A stretch of DNA of 64,000 bases, taken from NCBI GenBank assembly GCA_001563335.1, contig LRSL01000069.1, forward strand, positions 96,001 to 160,000. Direction: 5' to 3'. Below the pieces are notes generated by a model. It worked only from the letters and a program-made list of their open reading frames with translations. It was not told the origin of the DNA and did no database searches. This document shows, one piece after another, positions 19,818 to 38,962 of the stretch. The stretch is from Candidatus Thorarchaeota archaeon SMTZ1-45 (GTDB taxonomy: Archaea; Asgardarchaeota; Thorarchaeia; Thorarchaeales; Thorarchaeaceae). A program made the translations under genes and the position numbers. Each line of letters starts with the position of its first letter. The stretch's first letter is position 1.

Positions 19818-22175
19818 TTAACTAATTAATTTTGCACCTGCAACGACAACTTGTCCAATTGAAATTCCACCGTCACCTGGTGGTACATTGAGATGTATCA
19901 GTGGTTTAAGATTCTCTTTCTTTATTTGATCAATAACTGCCTTTGTGATAATCCGATTAAGAGCAACACCTCCAGAAAAACCAACATACTTTAGACTCTT
20001 CTCTTTAGCTACAGAACAAGCAATATCAGCCAATGAGTTCCCAAGATACCACTGTGCAGCATAAGCAATCTCTTCCTTATTGATACCTTTCTTTCTTAAT
20101 TCAAGAATTTTTATCAAGCCATCTACAATATCTAAATCCAATCCATTTTTCATCGATTTAAATTCAGGAGGGATTCGTAAGTCTGTTTTTCTTGCTACAG
20201 ATTCAAGTTTCATTGGACATTCACCATCGTATGAGTTTTTAGAACAAATACCAAGTATCATTGCCACTGCATCAAGGAATCTTCCAGCACTTGTACTATT
20301 TATTGTGTTTATTCGACGACTAATTGTGTCAAGGATAATATCCAGTGAATCTGTGTCCATATCAATTTCAGGTCCAATTGGTGCTGAACCAACAATTTTT
20401 AGAATCTCGTTTTTCTCTAAAGACTCACTTAGAATTCCTGTAACGGACCTTGCTGCATAAATTGCTGAGAGATCTCCACCAGGATAGTTCACATTTCTGA
20501 GACCGCCTGCTCTTTTGAATTCTCTAAGGTCACCTAGTAATATTTCTCCTCCCCACCCAGTATTATCCATGCTCAAACCATAGCCATCTGCTGTAATACA
20601 AACAATACTTGTATCAATTCCCAAATTATGATCTGCAATCATAGATGCAAGGTGCGCATGATGATGCTGTACTCGAAAGAGTGGAATATCTTGATCAATA
20701 CTCATTTGCTCTGCAAATTCAGTAGTCAAAAAATCAGGATGGTAATCACATGCAATCCCATCGAGCTCGTTTACATCAAGAAGATGAAGAAGATGCTTTA
20801 TAGCATCAGACAGAAATTCCAAACTTTCAACTCGATTAATATCACCAATATGCTGAGTTGGATAAATTCTTCCTGATTTCAAAACAGAAGCTGTTACCTT
20901 TTCCTCAGGACCAACACCAACTATTTCAATAGATTTCCAGAAATCCGTTAATTGAAGTGGATCTGGAACATATCCTCTTGCTCGTCGTAAAAAGACTGGT
21001 TTGTTGTTGTCCACAAATTTGACAACAGAATCATCAGCTCTTTGGTAAATTCTACGATTATGAATCAGAGAATAATCAACTATGTCCTTGAGCTCAGAAA
21101 CAATAACCTCAGGTTCAATATACATTGGTACACCCGTAGGGTTTGCACTTGTCATTATCAAAGCAGGCTCATTTGTATATTGAAATAAAAGATGATGAAT
21201 AGGTGCATAAGGTAGCATAACCCCAATAGTATCAAGACCTGGTGCGATAACATCTTGCACATCATCTGGAACCACCTCTGATTCTGTTTTCTTTTGTAAA
21301 AGGACTATAGGTCTTCGCCAAGATTCCAAGAGTTCTCGTTGCATATCAGTAAAATATACAAACTGTTCTAGGACTGAAAGATTTCTTACCATTATTGCAA
21401 AAGGGCGCTGGGATCTTTTTTTCCTTTGTCTTAAAGTTTCAATTGCTCTAGAACTGGATGTCTTTGTTGCAATATGAGTTCCTCCAATACCCTGTATCGC
21501 AATTACTCTATTCTTGTCAAGCATTTGCATAATATATTGTACAGGATTATCTGTTTCAATCTGAATTCCGTTTGCATTAACTACCCTATAGAGAGGTCCA
21601 CAATTTTTACAAGCAGTTGTTTGAGCATGATAACGTCTATCGATAGGATTTGTATAACCTGTATTACAAGTATCACAAAGAGGGAAATCAATCATAGTTG
21701 TGTTTGGTCGGTCATATGGAAGATTTGTTATAGTCGAGAATCTTGGTCCACAAGCTGCACATGATGTAAATGGATATCTATACCATCGAGATTCCTGAGA
21801 TAACAAATCTTCAATACAATTATCACATATCGCAATATCTGGCGGCAAAATAGGGATAGATCCTTCTGTTCGTGTTTCTAAGGATTTTCTTATTTCAAAT
21901 GATGTAAATGAATCAGTGCTATTAGTCCAATTAACAGAAATCGAATCAATACGCGAAATAGATGGAGGACTTTTCTTAATAGTATCAATCAATTTTTTGA
22001 TATCAGATTTTTGTCCTTCTACAACAATCTTTACTCCCGCATCACCCAAATTAAGAACAAATCCTGTGAGCAAGAGAGACTCAGCAATATTATACACAAA
22101 TGGTCTAAAGCCAACTCCCTGAACTATTCCTGTCACATGAATATCAGCTCTTTTCTTCACAGATGAAGACACCAT
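19818..22175 (-). CDS. hypF: [NiFe]-hydrogenase maturation carbamoyltransferase
   Basis: GIVQGVGFRPF acylphosphatase domain, CxxC zinc fingers, QHHHAH, PPGDGGISIGQ. Confidence 0.97.
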   Translation of the reverse strand: MVSSSVKKRADIHVTGIVQGVGFRPFVYNIAESLLLTGFVLNLGDAGVKIVVEGQKSDIKKLIDTIKKSPPSISRIDSISVNWTNSTDSFTSFEIRKSLETRTEGSIPILPPDIAICDNCIEDLLSQESRWYRYPFTSCAACGPRFSTITNLPYDRPNTTMIDFPLCDTCNTGYTNPIDRRYHAQTTACKNCGPLYRVVNANGIQIETDNPVQYIMQMLDKNRVIAIQGIGGTHIATKTSSSRAIETLRQRKKRSQRPFAIMVRNLSVLEQFVYFTDMQRELLESWRRPIVLLQKKTESEVVPDDVQDVIAPGLDTIGVMLPYAPIHHLLFQYTNEPALIMTSANPTGVPMYIEPEVIVSELKDIVDYSLIHNRRIYQRADDSVVKFVDNNKPVFLRRARGYVPDPLQLTDFWKSIEIVGVGPEEKVTASVLKSGRIYPTQHIGDINRVESLEFLSDAIKHLLHLLDVNELDGIACDYHPDFLTTEFAEQMSIDQDIPLFRVQHHHAHLASMIADHNLGIDTSIVCITADGYGLSMDNTGWGGEILLGDLREFKRAGGLRNVNYPGGDLSAIYAARSVTGILSESLEKNEILKIVGSAPIGPEIDMDTDSLDIILDTISRRINTINSTSAGRFLDAVAMILGICSKNSYDGECPMKLESVARKTDLRIPPEFKSMKNGLDLDIVDGLIKILELRKKGINKEEIAYAAQWYLGNSLADIACSVAKEKSLKYVGFSGGVALNRIITKAVIDQIKKENLKPLIHLNVPPGDGGISIGQVVVAGAKLIS

Positions 22176-22959: not shown

Positions 22960-23508
22960 TTGCAATTCAAAAATACTCGACAAACTTCTGATAAGAAAGT
23001 AATGAAACAATTGGCAATTGGAACACGACACGTACTAAAAGAGCCAATTCTAAAGAAGCTTCAAGAAGGATCTGTGCTAAGTGAAGTTCAATTAGAAACT
23101 CTCCTTATCGATTTGGTTTTAGAAGACAGTCTGGGATCACATATCACATATGAAGATAAAGCAACAATCCGAACAAAATATGGGACCAGGTCTCGTGGCG
23201 TTTCAAGAGGGGCATTCAATAGAACTTTGAATCAGGCTCGTCGAAACTTATCCCGTTGTTTTTACACTATGTTGTTACTAGCATACTTAGGTCTCTTTGA
23301 ATTAACAATATTTCGTCCTTTCGAAGAAGTTGCTGCTCGTATAGGTGATTACAGAAGAATCCGCGATATTCTCGCTGGAAAAGTTGAGCTAACAACAGAA
23401 GAACTCGAAAGCATTAGAGCTACTGAAAGAACAATCATGGCTGCACTTGACGAGCTTTCATCCTCACTAGCGCTTAAATCAGAGATATCCAAAAAGAAGT
23501 CTGATTAA
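22960..23508 (+). CDS. Hypothetical protein with HTH-like segment
   Basis: LSEVQLETL...RGVSRGAFNRTLNQARRN resembles sigma-4/Tfx-type HTH. Confidence 0.6.
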   Translation: MQFKNTRQTSDKKVMKQLAIGTRHVLKEPILKKLQEGSVLSEVQLETLLIDLVLEDSLGSHITYEDKATIRTKYGTRSRGVSRGAFNRTLNQARRNLSRCFYTMLLLAYLGLFELTIFRPFEEVAARIGDYRRIRDILAGKVELTTEELESIRATERTIMAALDELSSSLALKSEISKKKSD

Positions 23509-23531
23509 TCAACAAAGAAAGAAAGCGGCTC

Positions 23532-23715
23532 GAGCGTGTCGCACCAAGGAGCAATCCAACGTATTTGAGCACAGTCCTTCTCCAGCACTCAAGCAACCAT
23601 TTAGGTCATCCTGGAGGTTTGTTTGAGGAGATAGAGATGACAATGACGAGTGCCTGAAACGTCGGAAAGGTGTGTCCTATCCACGTCGGCTTACTTGCCA
23701 TTGCACGACACACTC
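23532..23715 (-). ncRNA. Candidate structured non-coding RNA (~184 nt)
   Basis: GC-rich intergenic island closed by GAGTGTGTCG/CGACACGCTC stem; internal hairpins with G-U pairs favour the minus strand; TATA-like element upstream and T-rich tract downstream. Confidence 0.55.
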
Positions 23716-23914
23716 ATATTATACATGGTAACAATTATACATAGTTCTATTCTTAGAACGGGAATTTTCGTCATATTTTCATGTTCTATTTGGCGCTTAA
23801 TCAAACAAATTGATACATGTATTACAATTTATACAATTTTGAATACCCGAAGAAACCTTAATCGTAATCTCATGGTGACAATAGATTGTACACCATACCA
23901 GTAGTGATGACAAC

Positions 23915-25165
23915 TTGGTTGATGATAATAGTCGTGATAGAATCTTCAAAGCAGTCAGGCAACGTATCAAAGAAACTGACGAAATAGAAAGAATACAGGT
24001 CATGGCAAATGCAATTGGAGATCGTCGTTACAGAGACCTAGTAGATATAGTTTCTAGAATTGAAAGTGAAGAAGGCTGGTCCACAGCGCTTGAATACCTA
24101 CTGAAAGCACAACATCAAAAGTATTCATCACCATTTATCATTGGTCAAGACAAAACAAACCTGGAAGAGTTGAAGTATCGAGAGATGGTATTCGAACTAT
24201 TATCATGTAAAGGACTAGAACCAATCACCCCAGGAACAACTGATCTTCTGAAGAATCTGGACCAAGAATCCTCACTTATTGATGCTTCCCGTGTTTTTAT
24301 AGACATTGTAGAAAAGTTAGCTATTGAACAAATACATACTGATGACACACTATTCTTTGACTTCTCTTATAATATTTCAATCTCTAAAGAAACTGTGAAA
24401 ATCTTAGATCAAGTCAGAAACAAGAATATTCATACCATCTCTCTTGAAAGGAAGGAAGAACAATTCAATATCGAACCTCTATGGTACACTGAGTATGGTC
24501 GACTTGCCTTGTCAACACTCGGAATCAAAGGTTTTGTAGTGAACACTGACACATTTGATAGTATACTATCAATAATACAAGTGCCTAGTCTTATTAGAAC
24601 AAAGAATGTCAATAAATTCTCTTTCAAGAGTAAAAAGAGAGATTCGTGGACTCGCCCCACAAATCAAACATACAAAAATCTACTGGATTATCTTATTCAT
24701 CATGATGTGAATAACTTAGGCTTACTAGGAAGTAGACACTCTATACCACTACTAAATATTCTGCTTGATGGAGCTTCTTCCACATATGAAAATTTACAGT
24801 CTTCAAGTGGTTACAGAGAGATACTCAATTGTATGAATGCACATCTCTCTGTTCGTGATATTGAATCAATTCTTGTTTTAGAAAAATCATCACAAATGAA
24901 GAACACACGGATTGCGACAATGGCAATTCTAGCTATTGGTAGCTTTTATCATGAATCATCTGCTACGACACTTGTAGATTTGTTGTGTAAAAGTAAAAAC
25001 AATGAGATAGAGGAAGCTGCTACAAAGGCACTTGAAAGTGTCTACAAAAGATGTCCTGAGGCTGATTATATTATTACTACTTCATTAAACAATGAATGCA
25101 AAAATCGCAGAAAACTAACCAACCTATATCGGCGTCTAAGCAAAGAAAAACCATTGTATTATTAG
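23915..25165 (+). CDS. Hypothetical protein with C-terminal HEAT-like repeats
   Basis: IATMAILAIGSF...LVDLL...IEEAATKALESV. Confidence 0.65.
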   Translation: MVDDNSRDRIFKAVRQRIKETDEIERIQVMANAIGDRRYRDLVDIVSRIESEEGWSTALEYLLKAQHQKYSSPFIIGQDKTNLEELKYREMVFELLSCKGLEPITPGTTDLLKNLDQESSLIDASRVFIDIVEKLAIEQIHTDDTLFFDFSYNISISKETVKILDQVRNKNIHTISLERKEEQFNIEPLWYTEYGRLALSTLGIKGFVVNTDTFDSILSIIQVPSLIRTKNVNKFSFKSKKRDSWTRPTNQTYKNLLDYLIHHDVNNLGLLGSRHSIPLLNILLDGASSTYENLQSSSGYREILNCMNAHLSVRDIESILVLEKSSQMKNTRIATMAILAIGSFYHESSATTLVDLLCKSKNNEIEEAATKALESVYKRCPEADYIITTSLNNECKNRRKLTNLYRRLSKEKPLYY

Positions 25166-25227
25166 TAATACATAAAATACTAACTCTGACGACAAACATA
25201 AATCACACTCAACTCTGGCGTGCAAGT

Positions 25228-26613
25228 ATGAAAAGTTTTGAAACTGAGCTATTCAAGAACATAGATCTATTCTTCAATCCAAAGAGAGTCGCTCTTGTTG
25301 GCGCGTCCACAGATTACAGAAAGCTTGGTAATTCAATACTTATGAATCTATTAACATCTGAAATTGAAGTCTTCCCAATAACACGTAATACAGAACGAGT
25401 CTTAGGTGTACAAGCCTACAAGAGTCTTAGTGATTTACCAAAACCTGTTGATTTAGTTATAGTCGCAGTTGCTGCTAAATACTGTTCATCACTTATGCCT
25501 GAAATAAGAAAAGCTGGTGCAAGAAACGCAGTAATAATTTCAGGTGGTTTCAGTGAAGCAGGTCCTGAAGGCGCAGAATTAGAAAAGAATCTTGTAAAAG
25601 CTGCTCGAGAAGCAGGAGTTCGTATACTTGGTCCAAATTGTGTTGGTATTTCTAATACTCGTTTGTTCAATGGTACATTCACGATGATGCCAGAACGTGG
25701 CAATATTGCATTTGTTTCTCAAAGCGGAGCTCTTGGAGGAATGATTATCTATACTACTAGAGCGAAGAGAATTGGGATGAGCAAGTTTGCCAGCATTGGT
25801 AATTCTGCAGATATTGGATTTGTTGAAATTCTTAATTACTTCAGAGAAGATTCAAAATCGTCAGTCATTGCCGCTTATATTGAGGGCATTAATGAAGGTC
25901 GAACTCTTTTCGAGTCACTGCAAAAAGCAGCCAAAGTAAAACCCGTAGTCATATTAAAAGGTGGGCGAAGTGAAGAAGGTGGTCGTGCCACTCAATCACA
26001 TACTGGATCCTTAGCTGGTTCTACCAAACTATTTGATGCAATGATACGCCAAGCTGGTTGTGTTACTGCACCAACATTGGATACCTTATTTGAAATTTGC
26101 AAACTCTTTGATTATCAACCCAAACCAAAAGGAAATCGTATTGGCATTATTAGTAATACAGGAGGTGCAGGAGTTCTTGCCACTGATGCCGCATCAAACT
26201 TAAACCTTCAAATTGCTCGTCTTGACGAAGAAACAAGAGAAGAGCTTAAACAAGTTCTTCCACCAATGGCTTCTACCAATAATCCAATTGATGTTGTGGC
26301 TAGTGGAGGTAGAAGAGAATATAGGATAGCTACTGAACTCCTGTTGAAAGACTCTAATGTCGACATACTACTTGTTATATGCGCAGTTCCAACTTTTGCA
26401 GGAATGACACAGACAGAACATGCAGCAGGAACTCTAGAAGGTGTCCGCTCTGTTTCAATAGATAAACCAATTATAGGAGTATGGTTAGCCGGAGATGTTG
26501 GCAAACCAGGAAAAGATCTTTTAGAAATGAATAAGATACCTTGCTACGATGACCCTGCGCAAGCCGCACTTTGTATTGCAAGAGTAGCTGAATATGCAAT
26601 CATGCATCGTTAA
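25228..26613 (+). CDS. acdA: ADP-forming acyl-CoA synthetase alpha subunit
   Basis: FFNPKRVALVGAS, GPNCVG, SQSGALG, SHTGSLAG phospho-His motif, NPIDV. Confidence 0.92.
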   Translation: MKSFETELFKNIDLFFNPKRVALVGASTDYRKLGNSILMNLLTSEIEVFPITRNTERVLGVQAYKSLSDLPKPVDLVIVAVAAKYCSSLMPEIRKAGARNAVIISGGFSEAGPEGAELEKNLVKAAREAGVRILGPNCVGISNTRLFNGTFTMMPERGNIAFVSQSGALGGMIIYTTRAKRIGMSKFASIGNSADIGFVEILNYFREDSKSSVIAAYIEGINEGRTLFESLQKAAKVKPVVILKGGRSEEGGRATQSHTGSLAGSTKLFDAMIRQAGCVTAPTLDTLFEICKLFDYQPKPKGNRIGIISNTGGAGVLATDAASNLNLQIARLDEETREELKQVLPPMASTNNPIDVVASGGRREYRIATELLLKDSNVDILLVICAVPTFAGMTQTEHAAGTLEGVRSVSIDKPIIGVWLAGDVGKPGKDLLEMNKIPCYDDPAQAALCIARVAEYAIMHR

Positions 26614-34623: not shown

Positions 34624-34733
34624 GGGGCGGTAGTCTAGCCCGGCTATGATGTCTCGCTTACACCGAGAAACCATTGAAGCTCTTTGCTCTTTGGACTCGA
34701 GGGTCGCTGGTTCAAATCCGGCCCGCCCCACCA
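34624..34733 (+). tRNA. tRNA-Val(TAC) with 32-nt intron at 44/45 (34670..34701)
   Basis: GGGGCGG/CCGCCCC-A-CCA; TCTCG-CT-TAC-AC-CGAGA; BHB helix CGAG/CTCG. Confidence 0.92.
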
Positions 34734-38843: not shown

Positions 38844-38962
38844 GCGGGAGTTGCCAAGCCCGGTCAAAGGCGGCGGACTTAAGATCGCATGAAATAAAGG
38901 GGTCATGTGAATAGGCTATCCGCTCTCGTAGGAGTCCGCGGGTTCGAATCCCGCCTCCCGCA
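38844..38962 (+). tRNA. tRNA-Leu(TAA) with canonical 37/38 intron (38884..38917)
   Basis: GCGGGAG/CTCCCGC-A; GCGGA-CT-TAA-G|intron|A-TCCGC; long variable arm; GCGGG-TTCGAAT-CCCGC. Confidence 0.93.

Follow-up and report, generated by a model that had tools for sequence, protein, structure and literature searches.

An element of 184 nt on the minus strand of a Thorarchaeota contig raises two questions: whether it is an RNA gene and, if so, how its product might act. The window analyzed here is the whole stretch of 64,000 nucleotides from Candidatus Thorarchaeota archaeon SMTZ1-45 (contig LRSL01000069.1, positions 96,001 to 160,000), in which the element occupies 23715-23532; it occurs once in the 3.54-Mb assembly. 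A sequence-only reading had proposed a new stand-alone noncoding RNA (ncRNA) with several hairpins, a possible pseudoknot, and a loop resembling an anti-Shine-Dalgarno (anti-SD) sequence. Our analysis indicates that the minus-strand DNA from 23715 to ~23520 is almost certainly a genuine ncRNA gene of ~190 nt. Its product, here called the rod RNA, is an RNA family new to science and is confined to one Asgard/Thorarchaeota family, the Thorarchaeaceae. The limits of the gene, its strand, its fold and its distribution, as well as the exposure and invariance of its loop, are established by the comparisons described below. As a whole account, we tentatively favor an independently transcribed, single-copy, structured ncRNA that would act in trans through its loop, with masking of Shine-Dalgarno (SD) sites as the first choice.

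Limits of the gene and its expression signals

Archaeal promoters have a recognizable layout, with an element overlapping the position of the B recognition element (BRE), a TATA box centered near -26 and a pyrimidine-purine start. Sixty-five copies of the RNA were gathered from the family, one of which lies at a contig end and was omitted from the upstream counts (n = 64). The palindrome GTTCTA-N4-TAGAAC is present in 64/64 copies (family consensus GTTCTA-AGAT-TAGAAC, from which the window copy is off by one base), and in every one of them it is abutted by TANNTA at -28..-23, mostly TATGTA. The distance from the end of the palindrome to the first G of the RNA is 28 nt in 57 copies, 29 nt in 6 and 27 nt in 1, and the spacer between the TATA-like box and the RNA start is variable. 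The RNA itself starts with GAG in 64/65 copies, preceded by T in 62/65. Its 3' tail reads GAGCC in the window copy and GUGCC or GUACC in other genera, and a run of at least four Ts follows no more than 20 nt past this conserved tail in 52/64 copies, in agreement with the T-rich stretch that had been pointed out downstream. G+C content is 0.44-0.49 across the element, compared with 0.29-0.37 in the flanks. In the window, the gene and its signals lie as follows:

23744..23759, unstranded: 16-bp palindrome at -44..-29, a promoter-proximal DNA element conserved in the family copies
23738..23743, minus strand: TATA-like box TATGTA at -28..-23, directly after the palindrome
23527..23715, minus strand: ncRNA body, comprising the 184-nt rod (23715-23532) and the conserved 3' tail GAGCC; the 5' end is predicted, and the covariance models R1 and R2 (see below) match over the full length
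23513..23526, minus strand: T-rich run downstream of the GAGCC tail, a likely archaeal terminator

Because this layout fits that of known archaeal promoters, the palindrome, the TATA-like box, the T|G start and the oligo-T run suggest that the RNA has an archaeal promoter and terminator of its own, and from these sequence signals we infer that the rod RNA is transcribed. None of 20 listed sequencing runs containing the stretch was an RNA run, a result that is neutral on this point. The sequence-only reading had noted a TATAAT about 25 nt upstream. An A/T-rich box is indeed found there, within the TANNTA conserved in every upstream region counted, but since the genome is that of an Asgard archaeon, interpretation as an archaeal TATA box suits it better than interpretation as a bacterial -10 element. 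The proposal of a stand-alone ncRNA itself holds up, given the separate promoter and terminator, strong covariation, no Rfam match and no conserved open reading frame (ORF).

Fold of the RNA

Folding of the minus strand yields a minimum free energy (MFE) of -70.7 kcal/mol (z -5.19), a stability reached by 0/200 dinucleotide shuffles, whereas the plus-strand fold is weaker (z -3.38). Over 21 family representatives, the median fold z is -5.3 (range -7.2 to -2.6). The RNA is thus structured beyond chance, as had been claimed, and its fold is one unbranched rod, in which a terminal stem, mutually pairing variable arms and an apical stem lead to a large loop:

23703..23715, minus strand: 5' strand of terminal stem P1, 13 bp with 23544-23532
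23647..23702, minus strand: variable 5' arm, pairing with the 3' arm
23635..23641, minus strand: 5' strand of the apical stem, GUCAUCU, from the single-sequence fold and the genus alignment
23612..23634, minus strand: apical loop of 23 nt, with UCUAUCUCCUC (23635-23625), a variable linker and ACCUCCA (23618-23612)
23605..23611, minus strand: 3' strand of the apical stem, GGAUGAC, from the same two sources
23545..23604, minus strand: variable 3' arm, pairing with the 5' arm; its conserved AAUG pairs with CAUU under the apical stem
23532..23544, minus strand: 3' strand of terminal stem P1, pairing with 23715-23703

Homologues folded singly form essentially one long hairpin with interrupted middle helices, even in other genera whose arms share little sequence with the window copy. 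RNA length ranges from 136 to 190 nt in the family, and the mid-rod accounts for this variation. Both stems at the ends of the rod had been recognized from the letters alone. Pairing in the terminal stem is complete (100%) in 24 genus sequences and reaches 97.7% across the family, where 10/13 pairs are compensatory (alignment A5, below), and the apical GUCAUCU/GGAUGAC stem encloses a C/U-rich loop as described.

Covariation was assessed in a genus alignment of 24 sequences, made with plain MAFFT and left unfitted (A2), and in a family alignment of 50 sequences (A5) fitted to R1, a covariance model built from 24 genus sequences. As a control, pairing partners were slid by 1-3 columns. In A2, 92.6% of the rod's cells are paired, compared with 33-39% for the slid controls, with 16 pairs changed on both sides (slid, 4-10) and a covariation score of 0.204 (slid, 0.03-0.09). 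In A5, paired cells amount to 84.5% (slid, 31-46%), 53/59 pairs are compensatory (slid, 22-35), and the score is 0.436 (slid, 0.05-0.08). The homologue collection and covariation that had been suggested as a check therefore favor a conserved RNA structure. It must be counted against the rod that the strongest of these figures come from A5, the alignment fitted to R1. Because A5 leans towards the model, RNAalifold was run cluster by cluster. All 10 clusters with at least two members gave a rod-like consensus closed by the terminal stem; 8 were strictly unbranched, and two (L031/L075 and L080/L091) had one small side hairpin.

The strand of the RNA can be read from its wobble pairs. The fitted family alignment holds 376 GU/UG cells compared with 106 AC/CA cells, and this surplus identifies the minus strand as the RNA strand. 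R1 agrees, scoring 202 bits at the locus on the minus strand and 32 bits on the plus strand, as does the difference in fold stability between the strands. The earlier remark that mismatches resolve as G-U pairs on the minus strand is accordingly borne out.

Two rival views of the element bear on whether this rod exists at all. In the sequence-only reading, several local hairpins lie within the terminal stem, and CUCCAG in the apical loop forms a pseudoknot with CUGGAG in a 3' hairpin loop. The 5'-arm hairpin of that scheme is 74.5-97.2% paired with 6 compensatory pairs in the genus alignment and is chosen by some minimum-energy folds (L007, L013, L014 and L017); the rod is nevertheless preferred, and this hairpin may be an alternative conformer. 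The other parts fared worse in A2. The 3'-arm hairpin is 76.8% paired with 0 compensatory pairs, and at three of its positions 10-13 of the 24 sequences fail to pair. Pairing amounts to 78.3% in the small GGA/UCC hairpin, again with 0 compensatory pairs, and to 80.1% in the pseudoknot, which has a single compensatory pair and two positions that are each disrupted in 9/24 sequences. In the family as a whole, only 15/65 copies contain GGAG in the 3' arm, and the loop does not pair with the arm any better than shuffled loops do (median z +0.4). Instead of folding locally, the two arms pair with each other into the one rod recovered by the cluster consensus folds, and the multi-hairpin anatomy with its pseudoknot is very improbable.

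The more radical view is that there is no RNA gene, and that the element is a small ORF, a DNA regulatory region, or the 3' untranslated region or antisense of the convergent gene, whose stop codon it abuts. A closed ORF of 25-55 aa is indeed present in 50/65 copies. However, the remaining 15 have no closed ORF of at least 25 aa, the frame of the loop motif is split 33/21/11, and both the linker within the loop (4-13 nt) and the total length vary without a period of three. ORFs overlapping the element are thus conserved in neither frame nor length among the 65 copies, and a small conserved ORF, which had been named as grounds for abandoning the ncRNA, was not what we observed. In addition, substitutions compensate RNA pairing, G-U pairs appear on one strand only, and promoter and terminator signals flank the element on the minus strand. 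We therefore regard the absence of an RNA gene as extremely improbable.

Distribution in the Thorarchaeaceae

The distribution of the RNA was assessed with blastn, with R1 and with a family-wide covariance model (R2). Blastn with the element found it in 30/36 other genomes of the same family and in 0/24 genomes of other families. R1 returned one full-length match each in 66/86 family genomes, representing 15/16 genera, and R2 detected the RNA in 23/26 sampled family genomes but in 0/124 genomes from 26 other families of the phylum. Single sites matching the loop-complement pattern also occur in several family genomes without an R1 match, so the true share of family genomes with the RNA is probably above the R1 count. 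Of 80 metagenome loci returned by a loose pattern, 4 were confirmed as the RNA by R2. A further alignment, A3, was left aside, 15 of its 80 rows being reverse-strand matches.

Outside the family, the pair of loop motifs was found in 17/314 genomes compared with 19 for the reversed control, which is chance level for matches that were not individually inspected. Next to the gene for the 168-aa convergent protein described below, no RNA homologue was present at 20 loci in 11 other families, where there is neither room nor motif for one. Conservation of the RNA thus extends to 15/16 genera of a family that resists routine culture. With the ncRNA repertoire of Asgard archaea almost unexplored, it adds a covariation-backed family with a sharp functional site and an unusually rigid promoter, and its entry into Rfam could improve the annotation of Thorarchaeota genomes.

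Comparison with known RNA classes

A search of the window with Rfam 15 at the gathering score returned five tRNAs only and nothing at the element. At E<=10, the sole match in 651 nt around the element was a chance C/D-box sR20 hit (23900-23933, E 3.2) lying outside it, and at E<=1 no match was found at the position of the RNA in six other family members. The Infernal/Rfam check that had been proposed thus returned no known family, in line with the earlier statement that the element is not RNase P, signal recognition particle (SRP), 5S or tRNA. RNase P RNA (RF00373) and archaeal SRP RNA (RF01857) do not match at the locus and have their own genes elsewhere in the genome, at G000:C11:6966-7304 (168.5 bits) and, as a full-length candidate, at G000:C24:47149-47457 (E 1.6e-19). 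At 85.5 bits, the SRP RNA candidate falls short of the gathering score of 96.5 and would go unnoticed in standard annotation. A literature search on ncRNAs of Asgard archaea or Thorarchaeota brought up no description of such an RNA in titles or the opening lines of abstracts.

Several known classes were considered as possible identities, and most were rejected. In 6S RNA, a large internal central bubble mimics an open promoter, and archaea have no sigma-70 holoenzyme. The rod RNA shares with 6S RNA its size of ~184 nt, its rod-like shape and its paired ends, but its only large single-stranded region is a terminal loop instead of an internal bubble, and there is no Rfam match. C/D-box and H/ACA guides are represented only by the chance sR20 match, and the tail is GAGCC or GUGCC/GUACC, with no ACA. 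An IS110 bridge RNA or TnpB omega RNA is not indicated by a single-copy element whose neighbors encode HypF, a helix-turn-helix-like and a HEAT-like protein. For Y RNA, the partner Ro60/TROVE was not found in the organism's own genome (87.7% complete), and Rfam gave no Y or vault match; a search of the genome for the vault RNA partner MVP gave no match, but the control of that search also matched nowhere.

Among RNAs that resemble the rod RNA in some respect, bacterial small RNAs (sRNAs) of the RsaE/RoxS type pair with SD regions through C-rich loops and are shorter, with several hairpins. The rod RNA likewise has C/U-rich unpaired motifs in a hairpin loop, but it is archaeal, longer, a single rod, and without Rfam match. 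The Hgc RNAs are orphan GC-rich ncRNAs of AT-rich archaea; the rod RNA resembles them as a G+C island in an A+T-rich genome, but shows no model similarity and comes from a different lineage.

Apical loop and proposed mode of action

The sequence UCUAUCUCCUC is present in 65/65 copies, its first bases closing the apical stem and the remainder lying in the loop. The loop is 23-30 nt long across the family, and the linker between its two motifs 4-13 nt. Most copies have ACCUCCA as the second motif, whereas some have ACUUCCA, AUCUCCA, ACCUCAA or ACCUCUA at this place. Single-sequence folds predict the loop to be free, with no intramolecular partner. The 16S rRNA of two family members ends GGAUCACCUCCU, which the loop motifs AUCUCCUC and ACCUCC resemble; both motifs therefore copy 6-8 nt of the anti-SD tail. 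An sRNA that masks ribosome binding sites is expected to expose an anti-SD-like sequence in a host that uses SD sites. The unpaired loop indeed carries UCUCCUC and ACCUCC, and SD motifs are enriched 4- to 7.5-fold before starts: at -18..-7 of 2712 putative starts in the organism's own genome, GGAGG occurs 163 times compared with 27 in the control window, and GGTGA 166 times compared with 22.

Both loop motifs nearly copy the 16S 3' tail, and for this reason the loop appears most likely to act in trans. On this sequence evidence the RNA probably works through its exposed loop, and by its likely mode of action it belongs with the trans-acting small RNAs; both trans action and a binding partner are what we infer for it. 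In the proposed mechanism, the terminal stem would close the RNA and protect its ends, the mid-rod, variable in sequence and length, would serve as a spacer, and the apical stem would hold out the single-stranded loop as the working part. The loop would pair in trans with purine-rich SD regions of mRNAs, and ribosome binding sites would be masked as a result. That the RNA masks SD sites specifically is possible, if rather doubtful. The loop resembles the anti-SD tail, which suggests that it might help control translation or mature the small subunit, a testable role in either case.

There is an archaeal precedent for such masking in sRNA41 of Methanosarcina mazei, which is reported to mask ribosome binding sites (PMC5867862). 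Both are stand-alone intergenic small RNAs, and the exposed, pyrimidine-rich, anti-SD-like stretch of the rod RNA could likewise pair with ribosome binding sites in its SD-using host. Unlike sRNA41, with which it has no sequence or model similarity, the Thorarchaeaceae RNA is a long, closed rod with paired ends that holds two anti-SD-like motifs in one large loop, does not vary throughout an entire family, and is driven from a palindromic promoter of its own.

Several results weigh against SD masking. The search for a target was negative: the organism's own genome contains the exact 13-nt loop complement three times, one occurrence being the gene itself, and the reversed control equally often, and across the family, extra matches and control matches both number 0-3 per genome. 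A wobble-tolerant 11-mer gave 44 genome matches, just 10 of them with an ATG within 14 nt. Neighboring genes have no evident SD complementary to the loop, and neither RNase P RNA nor SRP RNA contains a loop complement. When 16S rRNA and its flanks were tried as a target, the pairing of the loop was no better than that of shuffled loops. Moreover, masking of short SD sites alone leaves the invariance of 11-14 nt across 16 genera unexplained.

Since these 11-14 nt are invariant, a protein or a single fixed RNA partner fits better than diverse SD sites, and the reading in which the RNA is a ribonucleoprotein (RNP) component or a decoy ranks close behind SD masking. In such an RNP, the loop and/or the terminal stem would bind a protein and the rod would be a scaffold; protein recognition would fit both the 11 nt invariant in 65/65 copies and the invariant sequence of the terminal stem. 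Circumstantially, the strongest candidate partner is the divergently encoded HEAT-like protein upstream, which has the same range as the RNA (72/85 other family genomes compared with 1/314 outside the family), adjoins it in 36 of 40 family loci surveyed, and shares its promoter region. The helix-turn-helix-like convergent protein of 168 aa comes second and is adjacent to the RNA in 40/40 loci, including 2 that are rearranged. However, genomes in which no HEAT-like gene was found (genera g5 and g34) or in which several stops interrupt it (G102 and G103 of g36) retain the RNA, which is therefore not strictly dependent on that protein, and the 168-aa protein is present in many Asgard families without the RNA. 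Synteny within the family is weak evidence in any case, since more distant genes are likewise conserved in 21-24 of the 40 loci, and neither neighbor has a recognizable RNA-binding fold. On balance we hold the RNP or decoy to be unlikely.

The RNA might otherwise be a mimic of the 16S 3' tail that titrates, or is cut by, maturation or initiation factors such as the D-site endonuclease Nob1 and the KH protein Dim2/Pno1, the latter of which binds the anti-SD core. The similarity of both loop motifs to the 16S end would fit such a role. So would the overall architecture, since archaeal Nob1 cuts artificial hairpins that carry the D-site in the loop and have their ends guarded by a stable stem (PMC3326319). 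The rod RNA has the same design, namely a stable end-protected hairpin with 16S-tail-like pyrimidines in its loop. Against this, the likeness to the 16S D-site and 3' tail extends over just 6-9 nt in a pyrimidine-rich context, the second motif varies between genera, the RNA lies outside the rRNA operon and is not linked to the genes of Nob1 or Dim2, and there is no experimental hint. A mimic of this kind appears improbable. In a bolder combination, quite unlikely in our view, a palindrome-binding regulator would control the rod RNA, which as a dedicated decoy for the 16S 3' tail would titrate SD-led mRNAs or Nob1/Dim2/Pno1, possibly together with the HEAT-like protein. Were this so, a new kind of global regulator, acting on translation or on ribosome biogenesis, would exist in the archaeal lineage nearest to eukaryotes. 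Masking of SD sites through the loop stays our first choice.

Neighboring genes

The genes around the RNA in the window are as follows:

19818-22175, minus strand: complete HypF carbamoyltransferase, an ordinary flanking gene
23002..23505, plus strand: convergent neighbor, 168 aa, all-helical, with a weak sigma-70 region 4 / DUF134-like helix-turn-helix signal
23915..25165, plus strand: divergent neighbor of ~390-416 aa (start probably the ATG at 24002); its N-terminal alpha/beta domain is without matches, and HEAT-like repeats form the C-terminal part
25096-26613, plus strand: ADP-forming acyl-CoA synthetase-like protein, an ordinary flanking gene

The convergent protein is ~180 aa long in the family (168 aa from the ATG at 23002). 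Its gene lies convergently just past the RNA terminator in 38 of the 40 loci and upstream on the same strand in the other 2 (genus g5). AlphaFold2 (AF2) predicts an all-helical structure (pLDDT, a confidence score, 70.7). Among 30 members, Pfam matches DUF134 in 11 (best E 3.8e-4, below the curated cut-off) and Sigma70_r4_2 in 2. A structure search gave only generic helical matches and nothing informative, and neither a PDB sequence search nor NCBIfam returned anything useful. The protein is encoded by a single-copy gene in 120/400 Asgard genomes from at least 11 families, including families without the RNA, is found in 0/135 genomes of the largest family (f9), and is without a name in Pfam or NCBIfam.

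The divergent, HEAT-like protein of ~400 aa is predicted by AF2 with pLDDT 92.1, and only its C-terminal 160 residues find matches, to generic HEAT/alphaRep repeats. The single match outside the family (G174:C249:2748-3350) is a 202-aa fragment of 50% identity on a short contig, which may be mis-binned.

The upstream palindrome as a DNA signal

With up to 2 mismatches allowed, the organism's own genome contains the palindrome a single time, and genomes across the family contain it about once each. Its being part of the RNA was ruled out, the spacer between palindrome and RNA being variable and the palindrome and box also standing before a protein gene in three genera. As a DNA element it would be either a transcription-factor site or a pair of BREs. 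This distribution points to a sequence-specific regulator with a putatively very small regulon; that this regulator is the helix-turn-helix-like neighbor protein is only a guess.

In the three genera (g6, g8 and g2), a second copy of the palindrome with a TATA-like box lies upstream of a gene for a surface protein of ~310 aa (loci L241-L249: G032:C3:40271, G099:C13:54562, G034:C54:7831 and G028:C25:2277). This protein has a signal peptide, many N-x-S/T sites (rich in potential N-glycosylation), a Thr-rich linker and a C-terminal membrane helix, and is without a Pfam match. The homologue in the organism's own genome (G000:C109, ~97228, minus strand) is not preceded by the palindrome.

Other observations in the genomes

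Two tRNA genes of the window, at 34624-34730 (107 nt) and 38844-38962 (119 nt) on the plus strand, are found by Rfam and missed by ARAGORN; they probably contain introns. The organism's own genome also yields 25 Ras-family matches, of which 14 have E<1e-38, as well as a true actin (441 bits), and the Atlas cluster of the neighbor protein is commonest in Candidatus Thorarchaeota. All this agrees with a host from the Thor lineage of Asgard archaea. In two other genomes, the 16S rRNA is unusual. In G062 (L233, G062:C2:61808-63345), an insertion of ~100 nt containing three small hairpins that resemble each other directly precedes the last helix and the anti-SD tail, and in G035 (L234, G035:C2:589938-592348) the 16S match spans 2411 nt compared with the usual ~1500. 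These look like rRNA insertions or expansion segments, which reportedly occur in Asgard archaea.

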